The translations under genes and the position numbers were made by a program. Under the pieces are notes generated by a model. It was not told where the DNA came from, searched no databases, and was given only the letters and a program-made list of their open reading frames with translations. Source: Pseudodesulfovibrio piezophilus C1TLV30 (lineage in GTDB: Bacteria > Desulfobacterota > Desulfovibrionia > Desulfovibrionales > Desulfovibrionaceae). From it: 32,000 nucleotides of DNA. Location: contig NC_020409.1 of NCBI RefSeq assembly GCF_000341895.1, positions 1,890,001-1,922,000 on the forward strand, read 5' to 3'. Shown here piece after piece: positions 8,909-30,769 of this stretch. Numbering within the stretch: the first letter of the stretch is position 1; every line of letters begins with the position of its first letter.

Positions 8909-10179
8909 CAGATTCCTCCCCCAAAGGGAAAACCCTCGGCATGGTGCTGAAAGGGTATCCCCGAATTTCCGAGACCTTTATTTCCAATGAAATTCGTCTG
9001 CTCGAAGAAATGGGGTTTACCATCCATATCTACTCCATGCGAGCGCCCAGAGAAAACTTTACCCACGATTCAATCAAATCGATCAAGGCCAAGGTTACTT
9101 ACCTGCCCTCATCGATGATCCTGGGGCTCCCAGCCCTGCTCTGGTATAACCTACGCCTTTTCTTCCGTAGACCTGGCCGGTATTGGCGATGCCTCAAACT
9201 CATGAAGACCCGTTTTCGCCTGGCTCCCAAGAAGCACACATGGCTCAAACATATGCTCCAGGCCGGGTATATCATGCAGAAATCCGTTCTTGATCAGGGG
9301 GTCGACCTCGGGCACATCCACGGACACTTTGCCCATACGCCGACCACGGTAACGATGTACGCCGCAGCCTTGGCGGATGTGCCTTTTTCTTTCACCGCCC
9401 ATGCCAAGGATATCTACACCCAGGACCCTCGCCGTATTGAAGACAAGATAGACCTCGCCAAATTCGTCGTGACATGCACCCGATACAATGAAGGGTATCT
9501 GTCTCGGTTCTCGAAGAACGGCAAACCCATTCATTGCGTTTACCACGGCATCAATCTTGATCTTTTTTCGCCCAATGGACGGACGACCGGGGCGACCAAA
9601 CCGTATCAAATTCTCACAGTGGCCCGCTTTGTGGAAAAAAAGGGACTCGACACCATCCTGCATGCCCTGGCCCGGCTTCGCGATGCTGGTCTTGAATTTC
9701 ATTATACCCTGGTCGGGGAAGGAAAATCCGGCTTCAACCGCACTCTTCGCGCCCTGATCACAGAACTGGGTTTGGATGATGTCATGACCCTGCCGGGAAC
9801 CATCACCCATGATGAAGTGATCAGACTTCTGGGCAACGCCGATTGTTTCACTCTCGGATGCCGGGAAGCAAGCGACGGAGACCGGGACGGTATTCCCAAC
9901 GTCGTGGCGGAAGCCATGGCAACCGGTGTCCCGGTTGTCGCCACAGACGTGTCCGGGGTGCCGGAACTTGTGGAGCACGAGAGCACCGGTCTGCTCTGCC
10001 CGGCCAACGATCCCAAGGCGCTTGCCGTTATTCTTCAGAGAATGTTGACAGACCAAACCCTTCGCGCTCAGGTCATTCCGGCTGCCCGCGACAAGGTCCA
10101 TGCAGTCTTCGACAACAAAAAACTCATTCATGACCTGGGAGATATCTATTTGGCCCATGGAGTCCCCTGCGAGCGGTAA
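8905..10179 (+). CDS. GT4-family (GT-B) glycosyltransferase, WcaL-like N-terminus
   Basis: The GTG start overlaps the upstream stop as GTGA (8905-8908); the alternative start is ATG 8941. YPRISETFISNEI lies at the N-terminus, and DGIPNVVAEAMATGVPVVATDVSGVPELV is the GT4 E-x7-E region. Confidence 0.8.
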   Translation: MTDSSPKGKTLGMVLKGYPRISETFISNEIRLLEEMGFTIHIYSMRAPRENFTHDSIKSIKAKVTYLPSSMILGLPALLWYNLRLFFRRPGRYWRCLKLMKTRFRLAPKKHTWLKHMLQAGYIMQKSVLDQGVDLGHIHGHFAHTPTTVTMYAAALADVPFSFTAHAKDIYTQDPRRIEDKIDLAKFVVTCTRYNEGYLSRFSKNGKPIHCVYHGINLDLFSPNGRTTGATKPYQILTVARFVEKKGLDTILHALARLRDAGLEFHYTLVGEGKSGFNRTLRALITELGLDDVMTLPGTITHDEVIRLLGNADCFTLGCREASDGDRDGIPNVVAEAMATGVPVVATDVSGVPELVEHESTGLLCPANDPKALAVILQRMLTDQTLRAQVIPAARDKVHAVFDNKKLIHDLGDIYLAHGVPCER

Positions 10180-10256
10180 TTGCACAAACAAGCTCTTTGA
10201 AACGCTCGTGTCTCTGCACAGGGAGCCCCCCGCCCGAGCTTCGTTGAAAACAAAAA

Positions 10257-10295
10257 GGGCCGGAACTCTCATCAAGTTCCGGCCCTTTTTGTTTT
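10257..10295. terminator. Bidirectional rho-independent terminator between the GT4 gene and folD
   Basis: GGGCCGGAACT-ctcatca-AGTTCCGGCCC (11-bp perfect stem), flanked by AAAACAAAAA upstream and TTTTTGTTTT downstream. Confidence 0.85.
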
Positions 10296-10307
10296 CAGTA
10301 TCTTGAA

Positions 10308-11165
10308 CTATGCACCGACATGCAGCTTGAATGCCTCAAGTGTGTTGACCATCAACTGAGCGATGGTCATGGGGCCGACGCCCCCTGGAACGGGGGTCAT
10401 GGCATGGACCTTGTCCTTCAGGGCTTCAAAATCGCAATCACCGGCCAACCCTTCATCTGTTCGATTGATACCGACATCAACCACGACCGCTCCTTCCTTG
10501 ACCATATCGGCAGTGACAAAATTTGGTGTGCCAATGGCCGCAAAAATAAAATCCGCCTCCAGGCATTCAGCCTTGAGGTCAGCGGTACGCGAATGACAGA
10601 GCGTCACCGTTGCATTGGCGCAGGGTCCGGCCTGAGAAAGCATCATGGCAAGGGGCTTGCCCACAATGTTCGAGCGCCCGATGACAACAGCCTTTTTGCA
10701 CGCAGGGTCAAGGTTGTAACGCTTAAGCAGGTTGATGACTCCTGCGGGGGTACACGGTTTGAATCCAGGCAGCCCGAGACTCATTTTACCGACGTTGACC
10801 GGATGAAAACCGTCCACATCCTTATTGGGATCGATCAGATCAAGAATTTTCTGAGAATCAAGCCCCTTGGGTAACGGCAATTGGACCAGGATACCATCCA
10901 CGTTGACATCACGGTTCAATTCCTGAATCAACCCCTCAAGTTCATGCTGTGTCGCTGTCTCAAGACGATGTGGAATGGACAGGATACCACAGTCCTCACA
11001 AGCACGCTCCTTGTTGCGCACATAGACCTGACTGGCCGGGTCTTCCCCCACCAGCACCACAGCCAATCCCGGCTTACGCCCGAACTGAGCCTTCAGCGCA
11101 TCGGTTTCCTGTCTGATTTCAGCTCGAATAGTGGCTGATGTCTCTTTTCCGTCCAGAAGAATCAT
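10308..11165 (-). CDS. folD: Bifunctional methylenetetrahydrofolate dehydrogenase / methenyl-THF cyclohydrolase
   Basis: ORF 10308..11228 (GTG) trimmed to ATG 11165, which is preceded by AGGAGcagac. [17 protein letters not shown]..., [29 protein letters not shown] and PGGVGPMT are classic FolD blocks. Confidence 0.93.
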
Positions 11166-12754: not shown

Positions 12755-13150
12755 TCATGCCCATGGAACGGCGAGATTCTAAACGAATTCTGCACAATGC
12801 TCAATTACCTTACGGCCGGGACACAAAAACACAGTTATTTTTTTACCCCACCCCATTGTCCCCCAAAACAAGATTCCATATGCTCGTATCATGTTAAAAA
12901 AAGAGACTCCTATTTTTAGAAGAATACTGAATGGATATCAAATCAACAAATTGAATTCATTAAGATTTTCATGGAATCTCACACTGTTTTTCTTGTGTTT
13001 GATTATTCAACGCGCAGCTTCACCACTATAACAGACTTGACAATATATGCATGTCTTCCTCTTCACCCACCGTATCCTCCTTCCCCAGGACATGCCACCT
13101 GTTACCTGTTTTTCAGTACGCACACCCGAACCGATACCATGGAGGTCTCC

Positions 13151-15025
13151 ATGAAACTCTCAACCAAACTCAGCCTTGGTTTCGCAACGTTATTGGCCTT
13201 GTTGCTTATCCTCGCCACAGTTGCCTACTTTTCAGTGGAAACATCCAGCAATGGGTTTGCAACATACCGTAATCTGGCCCGCAATACCAATCTGAGCGGA
13301 CGGCTCCAGGCAGATATGCTCATGGTCAGGATGAAAGTTAAAAACTTTATCATCCGAGGAAGCCAAAAGGATCTTGAAGAATACAAAACCTTCTTTGGCT
13401 CCATGATTTCTCTCATGGGCGCTGCCCAACAGGAGATCACCACCCCGGCCCGCGCACGACTCGTGGCAGCGGCGGCTGAACATGTCATGAATTATGGAGA
13501 AGCCTTCAAAAAGGTACACGGGTTTCGGACACAAAGAGATCATTTAGTTCACGACGTCCTCAACGCAAAAGGCCCGCGTATGGAACAGGATCTGACAGAA
13601 ATTCTGATTTCGGCAAAAGCGGATAATGATACGGAAGCCGCATTCACCTGCGGATTGGCCATGCGCAATCTGCTTCTGGCCCGCCTCTATGTCATCAAAT
13701 TCCTTGATGACAATTCCCAAACCTCCATAGACCGTGTTCACAAGGAAATGGATGAACTGCGTCGAGACCTTCAGGAACTGGACACATCACTCCAAAATCC
13801 TGAACGACGGCGTTTACTTGAAGAAGTTCGTGTCCTTTTCTCGGAATATTTTACTGCTTTCGATCGATTGACGGCAGTCATATTCGAACGAAATGACATT
13901 ATCACGAATACACTTGATCGGCTCGGTCCCACTATTGCGAACGATATTGAAAAAGTGAAACAATCCCTCATGAGTGATCAGGACACACTTGGCCCCAAAC
14001 TCCATCAGGCGAATCAACAGACTCTCATTATCGTTCTCCTGATCAGCCTTTTTGCGCTCGTGGTCGGCATTGGAACAGCAGCTTTCATCATCCGCAGCAT
14101 TACACGCCCGTTGCGTGCCGGGGTTGAACTGGCAAAGGCTGTTGCCAGCGGTGACCTAACCGTTGAAATCGATACCAGCCGCAATGATGAAATAGGCGCA
14201 CTGACACGGGCGCTGGATGAAATGATCGGACAACTGAAAACAGTGGTGACTGATGTTCGATCCGGTTCATCCAGTGTGGCTGGCGGGAGTGCCGAACTTT
14301 CAGGCACAGCGCAAAGCCTCGCGGAAAGCGCCACGGAACAGGCTTCCGCCATTGAGGAAATCTCAGCGTCCATCGAAGAAATGTCGAGTAATATCAGCCA
14401 AAATACAGAAAACGCAGTCTCGACTGAAAAGATAGCTTCTTCTGCCGCCCAGGAAGCCGGACAAAGTGGAAAGGCCGTTGCCGAAGCAGTCCTCGCCATG
14501 AAAGATATCGCAGGAAAAATCGGCATTATCGAGGAAATAGCGAGACAGACAAACCTGTTGGCGCTCAATGCAGCAATCGAGGCCGCCCGCGCCGGAGAAA
14601 ATGGAAAAGGATTCGCAGTCGTCGCTGCCGAGGTTCGAAAACTTGCCGAACGAAGCGGACAGGCCGCCGGCGAAATCAGCGGTCTCTCCAACGCCACGGT
14701 CACCGCTGCCGAACAGGCCGGAGTCATGCTGGAACATCTTGTCCCGAATATCCTGAAAACTGCGGAATTGGTGCAGGAAATCAGTACGGCAAGCAGCGAA
14801 CAGAATATCGGAGCGAAACAGATCAATAAAGCCATCAACCAACTGGACACCGTCATTCAACACAATGCATGTGCGGCTGAAGAAATGGCGAGCACCAGCG
14901 AAGAACTTTCAGCCCAAAGCCATCATCTTGAAAAGGCCATCTCCTTCTTCCGATCAACAGCCGCCCCACATACTATGCTTCAGCCCCCCAGACAGGGGCA
15001 AGAGAACGATTCTGCTCGGTATTGA
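13151..15025 (+). CDS. Methyl-accepting chemotaxis protein, long all-helical periplasmic sensor, HAMP, no C-terminal tether motif (MCP-1)
   Basis: ORF 12971..15025 trimmed to ATG 13151, with GGAGG at 13141-13145 five nt upstream. [21 protein letters not shown] forms TM1, and a second TM lies near residue 300 of the trimmed protein. The signalling hairpin [42 protein letters not shown] is present. Confidence 0.9.
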
Positions 15026-15250: not shown

Positions 15251-17215
15251 ATGAAATTAGCCAGTAAATTGTATTTGGGATTTGGTTCCGTGCTCTGCCT
15301 ACTCCTGATTCTTGCAGGAGTCTCCCTCTGGGCCTTAGAAAATTCGAGTAACGGTTTTCTGCGATACCGGGGACTGGCTCGCGATTCAAACCTCAGCGGC
15401 AGACTTCAGGCAAATATGCTGATGGTTCGCATGAACGTGAAGGATTTCATCCTCTCGGGCAGCGAAGAGGACAAACAGGAGTACAATGACTATTTCATGA
15501 AAATGAAAGAGTTTATGGAGGCTGCGCACAAAGGCATCGATAATCCGGGACGGGCCGGGCTTATTGATGATGCGGACAGCCTTGTCGCTCAATACGGAAA
15601 ATATTTTGAGGAAATAATTCAGTACAGGGCCGAAAGAGATCACCTCGTCAACAACGTACTGAATGACCTTGGCCCGAAGATGGAAAAAGGTCTGACTAAA
15701 ATCCTGACAACGGCGAAGCTGGATAACGATATGGAATCTGCCTATCGAAGCGGTCTGGCAATGCGGAACCTTCTTCTGGCCCGACTTTACGTAATGAAAT
15801 TTCTGGACGACAATTCCCGGCCATGCATCGAACGTGTTCGAAAGGAAATAAAGGAATTCAGCCAGGAGATGTTCACACTCCAAGGGAATCTCCGGAACCC
15901 TGAACGTCGTAAAATCCTTGCAGACGTCATGGAAATGCAAACCACTTACAATGAAGCGTTTGAGATGGTGACCAAGATAATCGGCAGACGCAACAAGGTT
16001 ATAAACGAGAATCTGGATAGCCTCGGCCCGGCCATTGCACAGAATGTGGAAAAGGTGAAACTCTCCATCATAGAGGATCAAAACGCACTCGGTCCAGAGC
16101 TTCAATCGACCAATGACAGAACAACGATGTTCCTGATTATCATAGGCCTTCTGGCTACAATCGTTGGTCTGGGCACTGCTTTCCTCATTATCAGGACCAC
16201 CCAACACCAATTGGGTCAGGACCCGGCAGAGATCGCCGGTATCGCGAAGAGCATCGCTCAAGGGAACCTTGATCTGGACCTTGATGCCCAAGCTGTCGGG
16301 GTTTATGGCGACATGCGAGACATGGCTGCCAAGCTCACCGAGGTGGTCACCAGTGTCAGAGTCAGTTCATCCAATGTCGCAAGCGGAAGCAATGAGCTTT
16401 CCTCATCAGCACAAATGCTCTCGCAGGGAGCCACCGAACAGGCCGCAGCTGTTGAGGAAGTGTCAGCATCCGTCGAACAGATGGCTGGGAATATCCGCCA
16501 GAACACTGAAAACGCCATTACGACGGAAGAAATAGCCAAGACCTCGGCCCGAGATGCCGGAGAAAGCGGAACCGCAGTCACCGAGGCCGTCAGTGCCATG
16601 AAGAATATTGCAGAGAAGATTTCTATTATCGAGGAAATAGCCCGACAAACCAATCTGCTGGCGCTCAATGCAGCCATTGAAGCAGCTCGGGCCGGAGAAC
16701 ACGGCAAGGGATTTGCCGTTGTCGCTGCCGAGGTTCGCAAGTTGGCCGAACGGAGTGGGCAGGCCGCTGGTGAGATCAGTCAACTATCCACGACATCGGT
16801 GGATATAGCTGAACGTGCCGGAAAAATGTTGGACACCCTGGTCCCCAATATTCGCCGAACCGCCGAGCTGGTCCAACAGATCGCAACAGCGAGTAATGAA
16901 CAAAATACCGGAGCGGAAGAGATTAATCGAGCCATGTCCCAACTTGATACCGTCATTCAACAAAACGCCTCGGCAGCCGAGGAAATGGCCAGCACAAGCG
17001 AGGAGCTTTCCGGCCAGAGTCAACATCTTGAACAGACGATCGCTTTCTTCCAGGTACGCCATGCAAACCGAGGCTCCAGGGGTGTTTCTGTTGTTCCGCC
17101 CAACAGCGTCGCTTTGCCTTCCCCACCAACGAAGACTCATACAGCAAAGACGGTGGCTCCCTCAGGCTCCGGGCTTGAGCTGGATATGGATGACGGAGAA
17201 TTTGAACGTTTCTAA
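15251..17215 (+). CDS. Methyl-accepting chemotaxis protein, paralogue of MCP-1 with C-terminal linker and EFERF tail (MCP-2)
   Basis: 654 aa. The sensor region is collinear with MCP-1 (for example [21 protein letters not shown] versus [21 protein letters not shown], and [22 protein letters not shown] in both). It has the same signalling hairpin and ends ...[13 protein letters not shown]. Confidence 0.92.
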
Positions 17216-18191: not shown

Positions 18192-20363
18192 TTAGAAGCG
18201 CTCAAAATCCTCATCGTCGTCATCCCCCAAATCCAGGGCGACCCCACCCTCTGGAGCCTTGGGCGCAGCCTTGGAAGGAAGCGGTTTGGGCGCCGGTCTT
18301 GAAGGAGTTTTGGGAGTGGACTGAGTAACACGAACTGTTTTGTGCGTGCCTACGTTGCCAACACCAATACTGAAGTAACCAATATTTTCCTGCATGATCG
18401 CGGCATGACTCGCCAATTCCTCCGAGGACGCGGCCACCTCTTCGGACTCGGCAGAATTTTGTTGAACAACGCGATCAAGTTCCAACATGGCATTCTTGAT
18501 TTGTGTTGCCCCGGTATGCTGCTCATTACTGCCAACGGCAATTTCTTGCACCAGTTCCGCAGTTTTATTGATGTCCGGAACCATTTTCTCAAGCATCTTC
18601 CCGGCCTGTTCGGCAATCTGGACACTGCTCGCTGAAAGTTCACTGATCTCGGCAGCGGCCACACCACTTCGTTCGGCCAACTTGCGCACCTCGGCAGCGA
18701 CAACGGCAAATCCCTTGCCATGTTCTCCGGCTCGAGCTGCTTCAATGGCGGCGTTAAGCGCCAGCAGATTGGTCTGACGGGCAATCTCCTCGATAATGGC
18801 AATCTTATCTGCAATCTGTCGCATGGCCTCTACAGTCTTGCCCACAGAGTCACCACCCTGACGCGCATCCTCCGCAGCCTGGCGTGCTATCTTTTCCGTC
18901 TGATTGGCATTCTCGGTATTCTGCTCGATGTTTGATGTCATTTCTTCCATGGAGGCGGAAACCTCTTCCACGGCACTGGCCTGGTTGGTTGCTCCTTCGG
19001 AGAGCGACTGCGAGGTCATTGCCAGCTCCGAACTCCCGTTTGTCACGCTTCCGGCCGTACTCTGTATATTGGTCACAACCTCACGCAACTTGTGTGTCAT
19101 GGAGTTCACCGCAGCTCCCAATGCCTCAAGCTCATCCTTGGGACCTCTGGAGTTGACCGGTAATTGCTGAACATTGAGATTGCCGCGATCAATATCACTC
19201 ATGACGGCCACGATCCGGCTGATGGACAGACTCATGTTGCGGCCAAAGTAAAAAGAAATAAAGACACCCAAAACGACCATGAGCACTCCGATGACACCAG
19301 ACCACCATTTGGCATTGGCCAAGGCAACAGCCGCTTCATGTTTGCCCTCCATGAATTCCTGCACAAAGCCTGTTCCGACAATAATCCAGTCCCATGGCTT
19401 GAAATAGGAGGCAGTCAAAATGACTTCCTTACCATCAAGCGTGGCATCACGCGTTACCGCTTCGCCATTAGCCTGTTTGGCAGCCTCGAAAAGGTCCTTG
19501 TACACCAGCATCCCATTCTGGTCTTTGGACTCAAGCAGGTTGTCTCCCTCTCTGGAATTGTTCTTATGCATTTTGACAACTCCGGCAGCTGTACCGGACC
19601 CACCCACAACCGAAAGATATCCTGTCTCGCCGAGCACCACGGACTTGAGTCCGTCGCGCAACTGCTGGACTCCCTCCTGAAGGATGCCGACGTACAGACA
19701 GCCCAGAACATTCCCGGAAGCGTCCTTGATCGGCCGATACTGTGTCAGGTACCATGCGTTGACCACATATGCGGTCCCCCGATACGTTTCGCCGGACTTG
19801 ATCGTCTGGGCGACAATACTGGAGCTGGGGATATACGTTCCTACCGCCCGGTTCCCATCAAGCTTCATGATATTCGTTGCCACGCGCAACAAATCACCCT
19901 GTGCATTCATTGTCTGAAAAACGGTACAGGTTGTCCCTGTCATACGCATGATCTCATCGACCATGGGCGTTGTTTTATTCGGGTCCGCATTGTGGCCGAA
20001 CCAGGTGTCACCGAAAAGCATCCTGGGTAATTCAACCCGGCTCTTCTCTTTGGTAATCTGATTGAGAGCCGTCCATTCCTCAGGCTCTGTCGAGAGTGTT
20101 ATCCCACCCGCTCGATCAACAACGTCCAGCAGAACGCGCATGTCGTTTTCCAACTGGTTGGATAATGTCGCATGCTGTGTGGACAGTAGATTCCTGGCAT
20201 CATCGACCGCCAATTCGATTGTATGTTCCGCCTGTTTATCAAAATAATCCGACAGTTTCATGCCGATCTTAGAACTCTGCCAAAACAAAATAGCCAGAAT
20301 TCCAAGTGTCGTCAGCCCCACCAACGCCACTCCTAATGTCGTCAACTTCGTTCCGATCTTCAC
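18192..20363 (-). CDS. Methyl-accepting chemotaxis protein with mixed alpha/beta (Cache-like) periplasmic sensor and C-terminal DFERF tail (MCP-3)
   Basis: 723 aa with a GTG start (GGAG 9 nt upstream). The periplasmic region contains [32 protein letters not shown], which I associate with Cache-type sensors. It has HAMP, the same signalling hairpin as MCP-1 and MCP-2, and ends ...[14 protein letters not shown]. Confidence 0.9.
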
Positions 20364-20460
20364 GCCTGCTCACTCCGTTTTATGATTGATCTCTCAAGCG
20401 GAACCACCCAACTCCCCCGAAGACTACTTTGGACGATACCTGCCGTAATAACTTCAAGCC

Positions 20461-20466
20461 ATTATA
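20461..20466 (-). promoter_or_regulatory. Candidate -10 box (perfect TATAAT on minus strand) for MCP-3
   Basis: The complement of ATTATA at 20461-20466 lies about 98 nt upstream of the GTG start. The -35 is only a weak match (AAGACG-like). Confidence 0.3.
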
Positions 20467-20575
20467 AACAAAGAATTCCTTTTTCGTCTTGTGTAATTTA
20501 ACGGTATTGTCGGCAGGGGATTGTGTCTACCGATGAAATCCCATATAGAATACGGCTTAACACTTAGGAGGCCCC

Positions 20576-21619
20576 ATGAATCCCGCATCGCTCATTCCCT
20601 TGGCAGAGCCTATTCCTGTCCCGTGGCCATGGTTCGACGCACTGCTCGTCATCACATTCGCCGCCCATATCCTTTTCATGAACTCCATGCTCGGTTCCGC
20701 TGCCATCGGCCTTGTGCATGCCTTCAAAGGCAAAGAGGGCCTCACTCGTGACATCGGCCAGAAACTCCCTCCGCTTCTGGCCCTGACCATCAACCTGGGA
20801 GTGGCTCCCCTCCTGTTCCTACAAGTCAATTACGGACAATTCGATTACGTCAGTTCCGTCCTCATGGGAGGCTGGTGGCTCTGTGTCATCCCGGTCCTCA
20901 TTCTCTCTTATTATGGTCTCTACGCTTATAAATTCGCCTATGACTCCATGTCTCGCCCACGACGACTGGCCATCTTTTCCCTCTCTGTTGGCGGACTGCT
21001 TTATGTCGGGTTCATGCTCTCCAACAACATGACAATCATGCTCCGTCCCGAAATATGGTCCCGGTACTTCGAGGGGCATACGGCCTTTCTCAATTGGGGA
21101 GACCCCGCCATTTATCCCCGGTTCCTTCATTTCATGGTCGGAACAGTCGCCATAGGAGGAGTCTTCATCGCTCTGCTCGGGCACTGGCGCAAGCAGGAAG
21201 AATACGTGGCAATCGGCCTGACGTGGTTCATCCGCGCGACCATCGTTAATATCGCCATCGGCCTCTGGTTTCTCATGGCCCTGCCCGGAAACATGATGCT
21301 CAATTTCATGGGGCAGACCCTGCCTGCCACCGCCACTTTCGTAGCCGCCCTTGCCTCGGCTGCTCTTATGCTCTGGGCCGCGATTCGGAAAAAGACCACA
21401 CAAACGGCTGTATGGGCCGCAACCACGGTGCTCTTCATGAGCTTCACCCGGCACTGGGTTCGCACTCTCTACCTCGAACCATGGTTTCGGATAGAAACAA
21501 CCCCGATCACTCACCAGTATGGCTCACTGTATCTCTTTATCGGCTTCCTCGTTGTCGGTCTTGCCCTGATCGGGTACATGCTCAAACTCTATTTCAAATC
21601 TCGTGGGGGGGAGGCGTAA
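20576..21619 (+). CDS. Polytopic membrane protein, degenerate cytochrome-bd-subunit-I-like four-helix core (partner subunit)
   Basis: 347 aa with SD TAGGAGG 4 nt upstream and about 9 hydrophobic spans by eye. The helix pattern AAHILFMNSMLG / LTINLGVAPLLF / GGWWLCVIPVLILSYYGLY / SNNMTIMLRPEIW parallels the N-terminus of the downstream protein. Confidence 0.85.
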   Translation: MNPASLIPLAEPIPVPWPWFDALLVITFAAHILFMNSMLGSAAIGLVHAFKGKEGLTRDIGQKLPPLLALTINLGVAPLLFLQVNYGQFDYVSSVLMGGWWLCVIPVLILSYYGLYAYKFAYDSMSRPRRLAIFSLSVGGLLYVGFMLSNNMTIMLRPEIWSRYFEGHTAFLNWGDPAIYPRFLHFMVGTVAIGGVFIALLGHWRKQEEYVAIGLTWFIRATIVNIAIGLWFLMALPGNMMLNFMGQTLPATATFVAALASAALMLWAAIRKKTTQTAVWAATTVLFMSFTRHWVRTLYLEPWFRIETTPITHQYGSLYLFIGFLVVGLALIGYMLKLYFKSRGGEA

Positions 21620-21622
21620 CTC

Positions 21623-24139
21623 ATGGAATATCCTATCTGGCATCTCACCACTCTGGCTGGCGGTTTCTGGATCGCCTTCATAGCCACGGTTCATGTCTAC
21701 GTAGCCCACTTTGCTGTAGGCGGCGGACTTTTTCTGGTCCTGACGGAACGAGCCGCCTACCGTTCGGAAAACCCGCACCTGCTCGAATACGCAAAAAAAC
21801 ACACCAAGTTCTTCCTCCTGCTGACCATGGTTTTCGGAGCGGTGACCGGTGTGGCAATCTGGTTCACCATCGCACTGCTCGCACCGCAGGCAACCATCAC
21901 CCTCATCCACCAGTTCGTCTTTGGCTGGGCCGCGGAATGGGTCTGTTTTCTGGGCGAGATAGTCGCCCTGATCATCTACTATTACACATGGAAAACCATG
22001 AAACCCGGCGACCATATGACTGTGGGCTGGCTCTACTTTCTTTTCGGATGGCTTTCCCTGTTCCTGATTAACGGTATCATCGGATTCATGCTCACACCTG
22101 GGGACTGGCTCGAAACAGGATCATTCTGGGATGGTTTTTTCAATCCCTCGTTCTGGCCAGCATTGGTCTTCCGAAGCTTTTTTTCTGCGGCCTGTGCCGG
22201 ACTATTCGGCTTTGTCACCGCCACACGCATTCCCGATACAACAACACGGCACACCACCGTCCGGACCTGCTCCGCCTGGACCATCCTCGGCGTTTTGGCA
22301 ACCATGGCAGCCGGGTACTGGTATGTGACGGCTCTGCCTGCGCCACAGCAGGAAATGATCCTGCTCAAGTCCCACCGTGTCTCCGACTTCATGCAGTGGT
22401 TCTGGATTTTCGGCGTTCTGACGCTCCTTGGTGGGTTGGCTCTGGCCATCAAACTGCCCCGAGCCATGAGCTTTCCCCTGGCATTGATTGTCCTGCTCGC
22501 CGGACAGGGCCTCTTCGGTTCATTCGAATTCATCAGGGAATCAGGACGCAAACCCTACCTCATCTGGAACTACGCCTACTCCAACTCCATAATCAAAGCA
22601 CAAGTCCCGGTCATCAACCAGAAAGGGGCCATTGCCAGTGCGCGATGGGCACCACATGAGCTGAAAACCGGCATAACCGATGCCAATGTGATGCAGGCGG
22701 GTGAATTCCTCTACCAACTCGAATGTGCTTCCTGCCACTCCATCGGCGGTCCCATGAACGAAATCCGCAAACGCACACGAAACTATGACACCAACGCCAT
22801 GGAAGCCTTCCTGACAGGCATGGGCAAACTCAACAGATACATGCCCCCCTTCATCGGCACGAGGCAGGAAAAAACTGCGTTGGCGATCTATATCGCCCAA
22901 GGGCTGAACAAAAATGAAAGTGTAGAACCTGTCGCCATCCCGACACCGGAACCGACCACACCTGCTCCTTTTGATTCCGTCCACTCCGAATACACCCTGA
23001 CGGCATGGGCTGATCAGGGTATGCAGTTCTATGTTCAATCAAGGCAATTCACCCTCCTCCCTGCCGGAAACATGATGCGTGCCCAACTCGTACGACGAGG
23101 CAGCTCTCCAGAAATAGTCACTGAAGACATCAAGATGCACTACAGCATGGAACCGGGATTCAAAGGTGAGAATCTGAGCGGCGAGCTTGAGGCATTCCCA
23201 GAGGCCGGACGATTTGAGGGGCGATTGGCGATTCATCCCTTCAAGGACGGCGTCTTTGAGCCACTGCCTATAATGACCCTGGAAGCCCGAACGCCTGAAG
23301 ATGAAATCCTGGCAACAGCCAAAGTGACAGTCCCGACCAGTGACCAAATGGGCTGTCGCAATTGTCATGGCGGGGATTGGGAACAGAATGGACACGGCAT
23401 AGCCTCGCCCACGGCAGCCAACATCCTCGAAACACACGACCGCATGAATAATACAAATCATGTGGAACGAGCAAAAAAAGGCCCTATCCTCTGCATAGAA
23501 TGCCATGATGATCCAGCTCAAAATGCACAAGGATCAAATGGCTATCCAACGCTTTCCGCCGCCATTCACGGTACCCATGCCGTTTTTCTGGCCGGACGGG
23601 ATGCAGAGGATTCCTGCCTGAAATGCCACCCGAAGAACTCCCTGCGAGGACAGCACAAAGGCGTGGGTCTAGAGTGCACCAATTGCCACGGCTCCATGGA
23701 AAATCACGCCATATCCCTGCTCAAGGCCGATCAAGTGCAGGGCAAGAAAACCGCAGACAGATTATTATCACTGATCAAGCCCAGTGGAGACCAGACTATC
23801 GAAAGCATCAATCCCAGAAAACCCTGGATCAACGAACCGGACTGCCTGACCTGCCATGTGGACTTTGAAACACCGGAAACCGATATGGGCTTCAATACCT
23901 GGACCAAAGATGAAGGTGCCCTTTATTCCATCCGACGCGACGACATGGAAGCCATACACTGCGCCGGATGCCACGGAAGCCCCCATGCCATATACCCCGC
24001 AACGGAACGGGACAACGTTTTACCTCTGCAATACATGGGAGCAGCCCAGAGCTTTGGTGCCGACGGAAGCTGCTCGGTCTGCCATATTGATATGATGGAT
24101 TATCCCATGCATCACCCAGGCATGGGTATAGAAGAATAA
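21623..24139 (+). CDS. Cytochrome bd subunit I (CydA)-like 8-helix membrane domain fused to periplasmic mono-haem c domain plus seven-haem c domain
   Basis: 838 aa. SD GGAGG lies within the end of the upstream gene, and the ATG is 3 nt after its stop. Residues 1-160 align by eye with the CydA helices 1-4 blocks. There are 8 CxxCH motifs: C368ASCH, C578RNCH, C624IECH, C665LKCH, C685TNCH, C741LTCH, C780AGCH, C817SVCH. Confidence 0.9.
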   Translation: MEYPIWHLTTLAGGFWIAFIATVHVYVAHFAVGGGLFLVLTERAAYRSENPHLLEYAKKHTKFFLLLTMVFGAVTGVAIWFTIALLAPQATITLIHQFVFGWAAEWVCFLGEIVALIIYYYTWKTMKPGDHMTVGWLYFLFGWLSLFLINGIIGFMLTPGDWLETGSFWDGFFNPSFWPALVFRSFFSAACAGLFGFVTATRIPDTTTRHTTVRTCSAWTILGVLATMAAGYWYVTALPAPQQEMILLKSHRVSDFMQWFWIFGVLTLLGGLALAIKLPRAMSFPLALIVLLAGQGLFGSFEFIRESGRKPYLIWNYAYSNSIIKAQVPVINQKGAIASARWAPHELKTGITDANVMQAGEFLYQLECASCHSIGGPMNEIRKRTRNYDTNAMEAFLTGMGKLNRYMPPFIGTRQEKTALAIYIAQGLNKNESVEPVAIPTPEPTTPAPFDSVHSEYTLTAWADQGMQFYVQSRQFTLLPAGNMMRAQLVRRGSSPEIVTEDIKMHYSMEPGFKGENLSGELEAFPEAGRFEGRLAIHPFKDGVFEPLPIMTLEARTPEDEILATAKVTVPTSDQMGCRNCHGGDWEQNGHGIASPTAANILETHDRMNNTNHVERAKKGPILCIECHDDPAQNAQGSNGYPTLSAAIHGTHAVFLAGRDAEDSCLKCHPKNSLRGQHKGVGLECTNCHGSMENHAISLLKADQVQGKKTADRLLSLIKPSGDQTIESINPRKPWINEPDCLTCHVDFETPETDMGFNTWTKDEGALYSIRRDDMEAIHCAGCHGSPHAIYPATERDNVLPLQYMGAAQSFGADGSCSVCHIDMMDYPMHHPGMGIEE

Positions 24140-24148
24140 CAGCAAAGA

Positions 24149-24172
24149 CCTCCCGGAAACCGGAGGCCTTTT
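24149..24172 (+). terminator. Probable terminator of the bd-like operon
   Basis: CCTCCCGG-aaa-CCGGAGG (stem with a one-base bulge) followed by CCTTTTCC. On the opposite strand it is followed by TTTGCTGTTATT, so it may act in both directions. Confidence 0.5.
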
Positions 24173-24502
24173 CCAGAACTCTTGACAGATGGACAGAATC
24201 CCCCGGAGACATTTGTTTCTGGGGGATTCTTCATGGGAAACTCATTTCCATATCATCTCTCGATTTCGCCAATGGCAAGAATGGGCTTCTCAAGAAAAGG
24301 GCTCTTGAGCCATCGAAGGCGAAACCACCTGACAATCCCGCCGCAGGCGGTTTTCCCTTCTGTCTTTTCAATAGTGAAAAACCGCCCTGCACGGAAACCA
24401 GAGCCTTTTTCACAGAAGAAAAATCCCTATGCCGAGAAATTCCCACACAAAGACGGCACTGAGCAACGGCCCTCATGCATGGTTCCGCATTCTCCCGCAC
24501 CA

Positions 24503-24532
24503 GAAAAAAAGGCTCCCCGATCTCGGAGAGCC
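24503..24532 (-). terminator. Rho-independent terminator of cysS
   Basis: The minus strand reads GGCTCTCCG-agat-CGGGGAGCC (9 bp with one mismatch) followed by TTTTTTTCTGG. Confidence 0.7.
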
Positions 24533-24566
24533 ATTTTCTATCTTATCTACCAAGAGGAAAGCCCTT

Positions 24567-26067: not shown

Positions 26068-26949
26068 TTAAATATCGTCGTTTGATCCCGCCGTTGCGGA
26101 GATATTCATCAAGCGCATATTTTCATAAATATCCCGCCCCAGAAAACACGCCAGAAACGGAACTGGTTCCACAGGCTTTGCCTCCAGGAAAAGCGTTCCG
26201 GGCTTCACAAGAAACTTTCGTAATCCGGTCAGGACTCCCTCTGCCACAGGATTTTTCGAATCCCCGGCATAATCTGCCATGAGGGCAAGCTCTGTCACCA
26301 TCTGATTACGAGCCACAGGATCACTTGTCCCGAAACTTTTGGCGATGGAATGGACAACGGCTCTGACCATGCCATGGTCCGTCACAGTCAGCATCGCGTG
26401 TTCCATGCGCAAACCAATGATTTTTTCCATACGGAATGCATCCAGGTCAAGCCTATCCAGAGTTGTCGCCAAATGCAGATCTCCCAAGTCTTCGGCTTTC
26501 ACGACCAGTTCGTCCACTTTCAGTTGTTTCTCTTTGGCATCATACTCATAGCTCATGCCAAAGCTCCCGTGAACCGTGGAAAATCCCGATGCGAGCAATG
26601 GGGCTGCCCATGACCCGAAATTGGAAAATGTGGTTTCCATGGAGACTCCGATTGCCTCCACCGTCGCAAAATGCGGAACCGGATTCTCTTGGTCAAACCG
26701 AGAAATACGCAGAACATCCGCAGTGAAATATTTTCCGTCAGGAAGATGCGTCTCGACATTTTCCAGTGTCACCGCATGGTCTGTCAGTGAGACGGAAAGG
26801 TCACCATAAGAAAGCTCCAGTCCCGGAGTTTCGGCCACGACACGATCTATCTCTCTGGAGACTTCACTGTTCACAAACCACATAAGCCCGAAAGAGCAAA
26901 CCGCAATGAACAAACAGAAAGAAAAAAAGAATTTCCAGATACGAGACAT
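26068..26949 (-). CDS. Hypothetical protein with N-terminal signal-anchor helix
   Basis: ORF 26068..26955 (TTG) trimmed to ATG 26949, 2 nt after the ispDF stop. MSRIWKFFFSFCLFIAVCSFGLMWFV forms the anchor. I recognise no motif in the rest. Confidence 0.7.
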   Translation of the reverse strand: MSRIWKFFFSFCLFIAVCSFGLMWFVNSEVSREIDRVVAETPGLELSYGDLSVSLTDHAVTLENVETHLPDGKYFTADVLRISRFDQENPVPHFATVEAIGVSMETTFSNFGSWAAPLLASGFSTVHGSFGMSYEYDAKEKQLKVDELVVKAEDLGDLHLATTLDRLDLDAFRMEKIIGLRMEHAMLTVTDHGMVRAVVHSIAKSFGTSDPVARNQMVTELALMADYAGDSKNPVAEGVLTGLRKFLVKPGTLFLEAKPVEPVPFLACFLGRDIYENMRLMNISATAGSNDDI

Positions 26950-26951
26950 TG

Positions 26952-28148
26952 TCAAACTTCCCTCAGTGCCGTCACTGTGGCCACGGCCTTGATGCCTTTT
27001 TTCTGGCCCGTGAAGCCAAGTTTTTCTTCTGTGGTGGCCTTGAAATTCACTTGATGCCGCTCAAGCCCCAGTACTCTGCACAGATTTTTGGCAATCTGGG
27101 CGGAATGGGGAGCCATGCGCGGCACTTGGGCAATAAGAGTCAGATCTGCATGAACAAGACGCGCACCGGCTTCATCGGCCATGGCGAGAACTTCCTTGAG
27201 CAGGAGAGAACTGTCCGCGCCGGAAAATTTTTCATCGGTATCCGGGAAATGCGTGCCTATATCCCCGCCACCGAATGTGCCGAGTATGGCATCGGCCAAG
27301 GCATGTAAAAGGACATCACCATCAGAATGAGCAAGAATGTGGTACGGTCCCGCGATGGGGACTCCGCCAATCACCAGAGGCCGATCGTGCTCACCACCGA
27401 ATCGATGCACATCATACCCCCAGCCGACACAGGGAACCGTCACACGCGGCTCTTCGAGTTTGGCAAGATCCTGAGGAGTCGTAATCTTGATATTCCCCTG
27501 CTCGCCGGGAATGACGATCACTTCGGCTATCCGTTCCACCATGCTGGCATCGTCGGTAACATCCCACCCCTCTTGGACGGCCTGTTCGTGAGCCTGCATC
27601 AAGAGAGCGGTCTCAAAAATCTGTGGTGTCTGGACGCTGCGAAGCTCTGCTCGAACCAATGTTTCGGTCACGACACCATCCGCCACCCGCTTGATGGTGT
27701 CCGTGATGGACAGGCCGGGAGTGGCAGCCTGTGCGCCCTGATCGAGACAGTCGATCAATTCACGGACGAGTCGTGCGGAAACAAATGGGCGGGCGGAATC
27801 ATGGACCAGAACTCCGTCGCAGTCGCGAGGCAATTCAGCCACCCCATGACGAACCGAATCCTGCCTGCGTTCCCCGCCAGCACAGACCTTCCATCTGAGA
27901 CCAAGCTCTTCGGCCTTGAAAAACTGACGGAGCTGTTTCTCCATGGGAATGACATCTTCCGGCGGGAAAACGAAAACCACACCCTTGACTCCCGCCACGC
28001 GGGAAAATGTTCTGGCCGAATGCCAAAAAAGCGGTGCGCCCTTGAACTCAAGATATTGCTTTCGAACACCACCTGCGGCCTCGCCCAATCGGGAGCCGGA
28101 CCCTGCGGCGAGAATAATGCTCCATGTGTTCTTCAGAGGTCGATTCAT
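26952..28148 (-). CDS. ispDF: Bifunctional 2-C-methyl-D-erythritol 4-phosphate cytidylyltransferase / MEcPP synthase
   Basis: ORF 26952..28154 (GTG) trimmed to ATG 28148. The IspD N-terminus carries ILAAGSGSRLG, and the IspF C-terminal half carries GYDVHRF...AHSDGDVLLHAL...FPDTD. Confidence 0.93.
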   Translation of the reverse strand: MNRPLKNTWSIILAAGSGSRLGEAAGGVRKQYLEFKGAPLFWHSARTFSRVAGVKGVVFVFPPEDVIPMEKQLRQFFKAEELGLRWKVCAGGERRQDSVRHGVAELPRDCDGVLVHDSARPFVSARLVRELIDCLDQGAQAATPGLSITDTIKRVADGVVTETLVRAELRSVQTPQIFETALLMQAHEQAVQEGWDVTDDASMVERIAEVIVIPGEQGNIKITTPQDLAKLEEPRVTVPCVGWGYDVHRFGGEHDRPLVIGGVPIAGPYHILAHSDGDVLLHALADAILGTFGGGDIGTHFPDTDEKFSGADSSLLLKEVLAMADEAGARLVHADLTLIAQVPRMAPHSAQIAKNLCRVLGLERHQVNFKATTEEKLGFTGQKKGIKAVATVTALREV

Positions 28149-28268: not shown

Positions 28269-28632
28269 GTCTGGAGTCGGTCGATAAGCCGGGTCTTGTT
28301 CCCCTTTCGGGGCAACTGTCATTCATCTAGGACGGCTGTTACCAGACGCCTCAAGCAACCTACCCGGTAGCTCGATCGGGCCGATCTACTGCGCTACCCT
28401 ATTTGGTCTTGCTCCGAACGGAGTTCACCTGGCCTGCCGTATCACTACGACAGCCGGTGGGCTCTTACCCCACCCTTTCACCCTTACCTCCGGGATATAC
28501 CCGAAGGCGGTCTACTCTCTGTTGCACGTGACGGAGATCGCTCCCCCTGGGAGTTACCCAGCGTTCTGCCCTGTGGAGCCCGGACTTTCCTCCCCGATAC
28601 AAATCGCGGCGACAGTCTGTCCGGCTCCAGAC
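28269..28632 (-). ncRNA. rnpB: RNase P RNA, bacterial type A
   Basis: The reverse strand carries the universal blocks GGAGGAAAGTCCGGGCTCC (28593..28575), GGTAAGGGTGAAAGGGTG (28488..28471), CTAGATGAATGAC (28330..28318) and ACAAGACCCGGCTTATCG (28299..28282). It is collinear with E. coli M1 RNA as I remember it. The ends pair as P1 (GTCTGGAG at the 5' end with CTCCAGAC at the 3' end). Ends are accurate to about 5 nt. Confidence 0.93.
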
Positions 28633-30693: not shown

Positions 30694-30769
30694 TGGTGGG
30701 CCAGCCAGGATTCGAACCTGGGACCGACCGGTTATGAGCCGGTGGCTCTGCCAACTGAGCTACTGGCCC
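30694..30769 (-). tRNA. tRNA with CAT anticodon (elongator Met, or Ile2 if lysidine-modified)
   Basis: The reverse strand reads GGGCCAGTAGCTCAGTTGGCAGAGCCACCGGCTCATAACCGGTCGGTCCCAGGTTCGAATCCTGGCTGGCCCACCA (76 nt). It forms a full cloverleaf with 7/4/5/5-bp stems, a GTTCGAATC T-loop, an encoded CCA and a G1-C72 pair. Confidence 0.95.

Follow-up and report, generated by a model that had tools for sequence, protein, structure and literature searches.

An OR-C1-type gene pair of the cytochrome bd superfamily with an eight-haem c tail in Pseudodesulfovibrio piezophilus C1TLV30

Gene layout and translational coupling

The window, i.e., the whole stretch of DNA analysed here, comprises 32,000 nt of Pseudodesulfovibrio piezophilus C1TLV30 (contig NC_020409.1, positions 1,890,001 to 1,922,000 of the forward strand). 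It harbors two adjacent genes for a putative membrane enzyme related to the cytochrome bd oxidases, namely the gene of a large subunit with a haem c tail (BN4_11825) and, directly upstream, the gene of a smaller partner subunit (Table 1; all positions are those of the window).

Table 1. Features of the gene pair and its flanks.
Feature	Position	Strand	Remarks
Intergenic stretch between a divergent methyl-accepting chemotaxis protein gene and the operon	20364..20575	+	promoter-like site 20359-20386; AGGAGG Shine-Dalgarno sequence of the partner gene 20566-20571
Partner gene, OR-C1b type, 347 aa	20576..21619	+	no haem c; nine predicted transmembrane helices; cytochrome bd fold
Partner H31 codon, equivalent of CydA His19	20666..20668	+	conserved in 68/68
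Partner H185 codon, position of CydA His186 (haem b558 ligand)	21128..21130	+	conserved in 68/68
GGAGG Shine-Dalgarno sequence of the large gene	21610..21614	+	within the final codons of the partner gene, 8 nt 5' of ATG
Large-subunit gene BN4_11825, OR-C1a, 838 aa	21623..24139	+
CydA-like membrane domain, aa 1-308	21623..22546	+	eight transmembrane helices, without Q-loop; Pfam PF01654, PDB 5doq_A, Foldseek
Key codons of the large subunit	H24 21692-21694; E105 21935-21937; E112 21956-21958; E306 22538-22540	+
Class-I mono-haem cytochrome c domain, aa 325-428	22595..22906	+	C368ASCH and M407; helical in the AF2 model
All-beta (Ig-like) domain, aa 457-569	22991..23329	+	AF2 model: nine strands, pLDDT ~90
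Seven-haem c region, aa 578-838	23354..24136	+	seven CxxCH motifs, plus seven more conserved His
Hairpin of 10 pairs straight after the large-gene stop, then TTTT on the + strand	24144..24171	not assigned	likely end of the two-gene operon

The two genes are separated by 3 nt, with the stop codon TAA of the partner gene at 21617-21619 and the start codon ATG of the large gene at 21623. Since the Shine-Dalgarno sequence of the large gene is situated inside the end of the partner gene, translational coupling is implied. The coordinates of the open reading frames (ORFs), the gap and the position of the GGAGG motif are exactly those given in a preliminary description of this locus. A search for sigma-70-like promoter sites upstream of the operon gave no result above chance (2 found, 2.9 expected).

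The 427-bp gap downstream (24140-24566), which lies between the stop codons of two convergent genes, the large one and cysS, contains a further terminator-like hairpin at 24511-24532 in addition to the one at 24144-24171. Neither a convincing ORF nor an Rfam family match was found in this gap, and a CydX-like small hydrophobic ORF was not present in it either.

Membrane domain of the large subunit

The large subunit matches Pfam PF01654 (Cyt_bd_oxida_I) with 39.2 bits over residues 17-212, compared to a cut-off of 26.2 bits, and its sequence profile matches the CydA chain 5doq_A of the PDB (E 1.7e-5). The AlphaFold2 (AF2) model, with a predicted local distance difference test (pLDDT) score of 81.8, comprises eight transmembrane (TM) helices within residues 14-308, in line with the approximately eight hydrophobic spans noted before. 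The best ten Foldseek matches of this model in the PDB are all CydA chains (probability 1.00, E values as low as 3.8e-7, alignments of up to 415 columns). Hence, the bd-like identity proposed in the preliminary description is borne out by the Pfam hidden Markov model (HMM) and by the structure models of both proteins, which match CydA/CydB chains.

TM6 and TM7 are linked by 18 residues only, and therefore a Q-loop is absent, as had been recognised from the sequence. At the position of H186, a ligand of haem b558 in E. coli, F183, R184 and S/T185 occur in the large subunit and its orthologues, which confirms the earlier reading of FRS at this site. No conserved Met or His was observed in TM7 of the large-subunit family. 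The large subunit has lost the Q-loop as well as both ligands of haem b558 (the equivalents of H186 and M393).

Conservation was determined from the 80 best loci and 68 partner sequences, and relatives were counted in a collection of species-representative genomes. The equivalent of E. coli His19 is H24 in the motif ATVHVY, which is invariant (80/80); H29 of the motif VAHF is a His in 74 and a Gln in 6 of the 80 sequences. In the preliminary description, VAHF had been set against E. coli MYHF, a shift of five residues from the conserved H24 to H29. Both Glu residues taken for conserved at that time, E105 and E112, correspond to E99 and E107 of the proton channel and are each present in all 80 sequences. 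Likewise invariant are Y119, H131, S145, M156, R184, E302, R305, E306, R309, P311, and M407.

With the N-terminus out, the membrane loops contain 12 Lys and Arg residues inside and 2 outside. By the positive-inside rule, the eight TM helices therefore place residues 310-838, which include the haem c tail, in the periplasm, where maturation is possible. This is the location that had been assumed.

Following TM8, an invariant motif FEFIRE(S/A)GRKPY (ExGRxP[YW]) resembles 442-FVAEYGRQPW-451 of E. coli CydA. TM7-TM8 segments of three orthologues match positions 312-382 of the Pfam bd model with sub-threshold E values of 7e-4, 2e-3, and 0.09, and segment 382-477 of E. coli CydA covers positions 309-393 of the same model. 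GRxP[WY] is situated at profile positions ~364-368 in both alignments, and the motif as a whole at ~362-368. Furthermore, a local HMM alignment with our own sub-profile placed fiREagRkPy opposite FVAEYGRQPW. In case of hhalign comparisons of either profile to the single E. coli CydA or CydB sequence, probabilities were very low and gave a pointer to the ExGRxPW motif only. Due to the fact that the orthologue and E. coli segments cover one and the same stretch of the Pfam bd model with identical motif pairing, E306 is probably the equivalent of E. coli E445; this correspondence is suggestive, not proven.

Periplasmic haem c tail

Eight CxxCH motifs, starting at C368, C578, C624, C665, C685, C741, C780, and C817, were found in the large subunit, compared to 0.016 expected from its own composition, and all eight are retained in 76 of the 80 species. 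Their residues and nucleotide positions are those reported before, as is the YMPPF motif downstream of C368ASCH, whose M407 is invariant; H372 is conserved in 79 of 80 sequences. The tail is arranged in the order class-I domain, beta domain, and two plus five haems. For the class-I cytochrome c family PF13442, residues 357-424 scored 24.8 bits, slightly under the cut-off, and a precomputed match to this family exists in orthologues. The stretch following this domain had been described as free of Cys. It forms a folded all-beta domain (457-569) rather than a linker, and Foldseek returned weak beta-sandwich matches only for this domain.

The tail matches the Pfam multihaem families Cytochrome_C7, c3_2, and MtrC/MtrF domain II/IV. 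PF22113, the MtrC/MtrF pentahaem domain, covers the last five haems (residues 662-823) with 37 bits (cut-off 30). Seven additional His residues of the tail (605, 649, 652, 678, 788, 830, and 831) are conserved in 78-80 of the 80 sequences. Since this amounts to one His per later haem, the seven later haems c are probably bis-His ligated with one distal His each.

Several homologues have CxCH (C-V-C-H or C-I-C-H, with a single residue between the two cysteines) in place of CxxCH at the eighth haem site, as seen around alignment column 911 of P0049, P0051, P0064, and P0080 and at residue 816 of the large subunit of locus L018. If functional, CxCH represents an unusual attachment motif for haem c.

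Partner subunit

The AF2 model of the partner (pLDDT 84.4, predicted TM-score 0.84) comprises nine helices. Its top 20 Foldseek matches in the PDB are all bd oxidase chains, and the highest TM-scores were obtained with CydB-sized chains (0.67/0.70). Residues 28-243 of the partner align with residues 21-245 of the large-subunit membrane domain in hhalign (probability 93%, E 3.4e-7), with H31 opposite H24. The partner profile gave no bd match among PDB sequences, and no curated family match was found in Pfam or NCBIfam; the relationship becomes visible via profile-profile and fold comparison only. Sequence profiles and model together identify the partner as a paralogue of the large subunit's membrane domain, of CydB size and with bd fold.

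H31, H185, M288, R292, R296, R182, and W161 are present in all 68 partner sequences. H185 aligns with F183 of the large subunit, which Table S6 of Murali et al. (see below) equates with E. coli H186. CxxCH motifs are absent from all 68 sequences, and TM3 lacks Glu, in agreement with the preliminary description. The term degenerate used there does not apply, since the family is well conserved, including the invariant H31, H185, M288, R292, and R296. The membrane loops of the partner contain 16 Lys and Arg residues inside and 4 outside, if the N-terminus is out. H31 and H185 may bind further haems. A His/Met pair of the b558 kind, formed by H185 and M288, was considered and not adopted, as M288 appears to be located mid-membrane on helix 8 and H185 near the periplasmic end of helix 5.

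Distribution and microsynteny

At least 569 relatives were counted in species-representative genomes, and they are common in the Desulfobacterota. The ligand residues stay invariant across 68-80 species even where identity falls to 44%. Of the 76 loci having upstream sequence, 72 contain the partner gene directly upstream of the large gene. Most of these 72 loci have an intergenic distance of -4 to +4 nt. A third conserved neighbour gene was not observed across the 80 loci. Taken together, the two genes are predicted to encode one heterodimeric membrane enzyme.

Orphan large subunits, for which tblastn found no partner upstream, occur in L019, L028, L037 (5983-8622), and L046, and have a common N-terminal extension (MNSNWLLHYP...). 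In case of Desulfonema magnum (L037), a partner homologue (P0229) is located elsewhere in the genome, and an Rrf2-rubrerythrin fusion gene is situated approximately 1 kb downstream (9654-10607). Within the Desulfovibrionaceae, two paralogous eight-haem clades were found, one with proteins of 820-840 aa, to which the window protein belongs, and one with proteins of 875-890 aa whose beta domain is extended by an insert of 30-45 residues. Both clades occur together in some genomes, e.g., L021 and P0035 on one Pseudodesulfovibrio sp. chromosome.

Assignment to the OR-C1 family

Murali, Gennis and Hemp (bioRxiv 10.1101/2021.01.16.426971) defined OR-C as bd homologues without a quinol site, with eight TM helices and, at the C-terminus, a periplasmic extension that carries haem c. 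OR-C1a adjoins a paralogous OR-C1b subunit, cytochrome c was proposed as donor, and members from the Desulfovibrionia contain up to eight haems. The gene discussed here is part of this survey: the OR-C1a sheet of Supplementary Table 7 lists BN4_11825 of Desulfovibrio piezophilus C1TLV30 with eight haem c. The window large subunit is 100% identical to the protein of P. piezophilus (formerly Desulfovibrio piezophilus), and the same holds for the partner. In Table S6 of Murali et al., the OR-C1a reference is given with H24, E105, E112, S145, H131, Y119, and Y121, and with F183 in place of H186; its residue numbers are those of the invariant window residues H24, E105, E112, S145, and H131.

The pair therefore belongs, with little room for doubt, to the OR-C1 family of the cytochrome bd superfamily. 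All features of OR-C1a were found in the large subunit, i.e., CydA-like first four helices, no quinol site, a CxxCH tail after eight TM helices, equivalents of H19, E99, and E107, and the entry in the authors' own list. The partner shows the features of OR-C1b: it adjoins OR-C1a, is CydA-like, lacks the proton-channel Glu residues and keeps His19. Haem-free "hypothetical" proteins adjoining OR-C1a are listed as OR-C1b by Murali et al.; this sheet is a sample in which the window protein is not named. The combination of Q-loop and His186/Met393 ligands of haem b558 that characterises canonical CydA (qOR) is absent from the large subunit, and neither profile nor fold of the partner is that of NrfD/PsrC.

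The public annotations of both genes mislead. NCBI lists the large protein as "cytochrome ubiquinol oxidase subunit I", although it is devoid of a quinol site. The partner is a "hypothetical protein" or, in UniRef, "Polysulphide reductase NrfD" (P0121), a name that lacks profile or fold support.

The account of the survey in the preliminary description was accurate, as OR-C1a/OR-C1b were defined there with the same architecture and the gene was listed; the novelty it implied does not hold. Architecture, missing quinol site, haem c tail, a/b paralogue pair, and the hypothesis of a cytochrome c donor have been in print for this gene since 2021. The window pair is thus a well-annotated example of a published family and not a discovery, and the question of its function was posed for this very gene in that year. 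The details added here to the published table are E306 as likely equivalent of E445, a partner model with nine instead of eight helices, the His at the H186 position of the partner, and the domain order of the tail. Papers after Murali et al. cite the OR-C classification only.

Comparison with known systems

No family-level difference was observed between OR-C1 and the window pair. With canonical CydAB(X) (qOR1-3; structures from E. coli, Geobacillus, and Mycobacterium) the pair shares the fold of both subunits, the N-out topology, the His19 position and the proton channel E99/E107, for which it has the 6-residue spacing of Geobacillus. The Glu445 ligand position may likewise be shared through E306. 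In contrast to canonical CydA, the large subunit has neither Q-loop nor H186/M393 site for haem b558, eight instead of nine TM helices and a periplasmic haem c tail of 530 residues. Moreover, the second subunit retains CydA-type His residues, and no CydX-like ORF is present.

The CydAA' enzymes (qOR4a/qOR4b) of Caldivirga maquilingensis, for which Murali et al. measured O2 reductase activity, are similar in that two CydA paralogues form a heterodimer whose second subunit lacks proton-channel Glu and quinol site and keeps His19. They differ in that quinol is oxidised via subunit I and haem c is absent. The OR-N families (Nitrospirota-type) are also bd homologues without quinol site, presumably with other donors and often as a/b paralogue pairs, but they have 10-14 TM helices, a kept H186 position, no fused haem c, and operons with separate donor modules.

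Qrc, Tmc, Hmc, Nhc, and Ohc of sulfate reducers and the MtrC/MtrF pentahaem domain have in common with the window enzyme a periplasmic multihaem c module, which probably docks type-I cytochrome c3. In the complexes of sulfate reducers, however, the haem module is a separate protein, whereas it is fused in the window enzyme, and their membrane subunits are NrfD-like or HdrE-like and pass electrons on to quinone or the cytoplasm instead of a bd-type haem site.

Proposed function and alternatives

O2 reduction with electrons from periplasmic cytochrome c is the likeliest function of the pair, judged from its sequence. The periplasmic cytochrome c3 pool, fed by oxidation of H2 or formate, would reduce the low-potential seven-haem wire, from which electrons would pass to the His/Met haem c. 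Located directly after TM8, this haem would substitute for the His/Met haem b558 and donate to a di-haem site on H24 and E306. There, O2 would be reduced to water with cytoplasmic protons taken up via the E105/E112 channel, so that removal of O2 would be combined with a contribution to the membrane potential by charge separation. We assign this mechanism as a whole, from cytochrome c3 via the haem wire to the di-haem site and O2, a probability of about 0.55-0.6. The preliminary description had arrived at a quinol-independent bd-like enzyme with its own haem wire, an interpretation that is supported here, with donor and substrate still presumed.

If O2 is indeed reduced with electrons of periplasmic cytochrome c, the enzyme would constitute a quinone-independent, energy-conserving O2 defence in "strict" anaerobes. 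It would also show, as an experiment of nature, a bd oxidase whose haem b558 is replaced by a haem c. In D. vulgaris, a cox bd double mutant showed wild-type-like growth at 0.02% O2, for which its authors invoke still unknown compensating mechanisms (PMC4383621). According to Table S7 of Murali et al., strain DP4 of this species contains a mono-haem OR-C1a. An OR-C enzyme could be among the mechanisms behind the growth of the mutant at 0.02% O2, a link that is circumstantial.

Several observations weigh against the proposed mechanism. The host is a strict anaerobe, and O2 is therefore perhaps not the physiological substrate. Which type of haem is bound (d, b or other) is not readable from the sequence, and four loci contain a large subunit without adjoining partner. 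With respect to the di-haem site, the pairing of E306 with E445 is derived from sub-threshold matches of orthologues, the segment of the window protein itself did not score, and a TM6-TM8 sub-profile found nothing in the PDB at E <= 10. Furthermore, E445 is marked as absent ("-") for OR-C1a in Table S6 of Murali et al. Finally, a literature search, locus-tag searches included, found no activity, cofactor, expression or mutant study of any OR-C enzyme, nor a published function for this architecture, in line with the preliminary description.

Canonical bd oxidases also act on H2O2, NO, and peroxynitrite. Correspondingly, the same architecture might serve as a periplasm-fed detoxifying reductase for another small oxidant (NO, nitrite, H2O2 or peroxynitrite). 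The strictly anaerobic life of the host and of most relatives, as members of the Desulfobacterota, would suit such a role, as would the rubrerythrin fusion gene near one orphan locus (L037), and the retained active-site ligands are compatible with it without identifying the substrate. On the other hand, the cytoplasmic proton channel (E105 and E112, 80/80) is a hallmark of the O2-reducing chemistry of the superfamily, and conserved neighbours with a link to nitrogen oxides or peroxide were not seen in the 80 loci. We regard a substrate other than O2 as an unlikely alternative.

Equally tentative is the notion that the membrane haems are split, with a di-haem at H24/E306 that belongs to the large subunit, plus one or two haems on H31/H185 of the partner. 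In that case, the pair might be a third terminal reductase in the membrane of sulfate reducers that has escaped notice so far. Its actual substrate or its coupling, be it to O2, another oxidant or menaquinone, might not be that of canonical bd oxidases.

A role as electron conduit appears less probable still. Here the bd scaffold would merely hold b-type haems and connect the periplasmic cytochrome c pool to menaquinone or a cytoplasmic acceptor, similar to Qrc, Tmc, and Hmc. Sulfate reducers are known for many multihaem c membrane complexes (see also the supplement of Murali et al.), the partner, with its invariant H31 and H185, has potential ligands for a transmembrane haem pair, and the UniRef name of the partner points to NrfD. 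Yet neither protein matches Pfam NrfD, and only bd chains appear among the top 20 structural matches of the partner; an NrfD-like protein, ActC, was found for the large subunit only, at rank 20 with E 0.08. Q-loop and b558 site, which define quinol reactivity in the superfamily, are missing, and no gene for a cytoplasmic redox partner is conserved nearby.

That the pair is a decaying bd remnant with incidental CxxCH motifs, as the partner's lack of a curated family match and its earlier designation as degenerate might suggest, is refuted by the number of relatives in species-representative genomes, the invariant ligands in 68-80 species, the confident AF2 models, the intact ORFs, the coupled genes, and the negligible chance expectation for CxxCH (0.016).

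Neighbouring genes

Within the window, the pair is flanked by three chemoreceptor genes, coaX, cysS, and ispDF, none of which is functionally linked to it. The three genes encoding methyl-accepting chemotaxis proteins are located upstream at 12971-15025 (+), 15251-17215 (+), and 18192-20363 (-). The nearest of them, divergent from the operon, encodes a Cache_3-Cache_2 sensor. This chemoreceptor neighbourhood is kept within the genus only (7 of 80 loci). Between cysS and ispDF, a 295-aa ORF with a hydrophobic N-terminal segment (26068-26955, -) has no Pfam match at E <= 1e-5. The minus strand further encodes an RNase P RNA of class A at 28269-28628 (308.6 bits) and a tRNA-Met (CAT) at 30694-30769.

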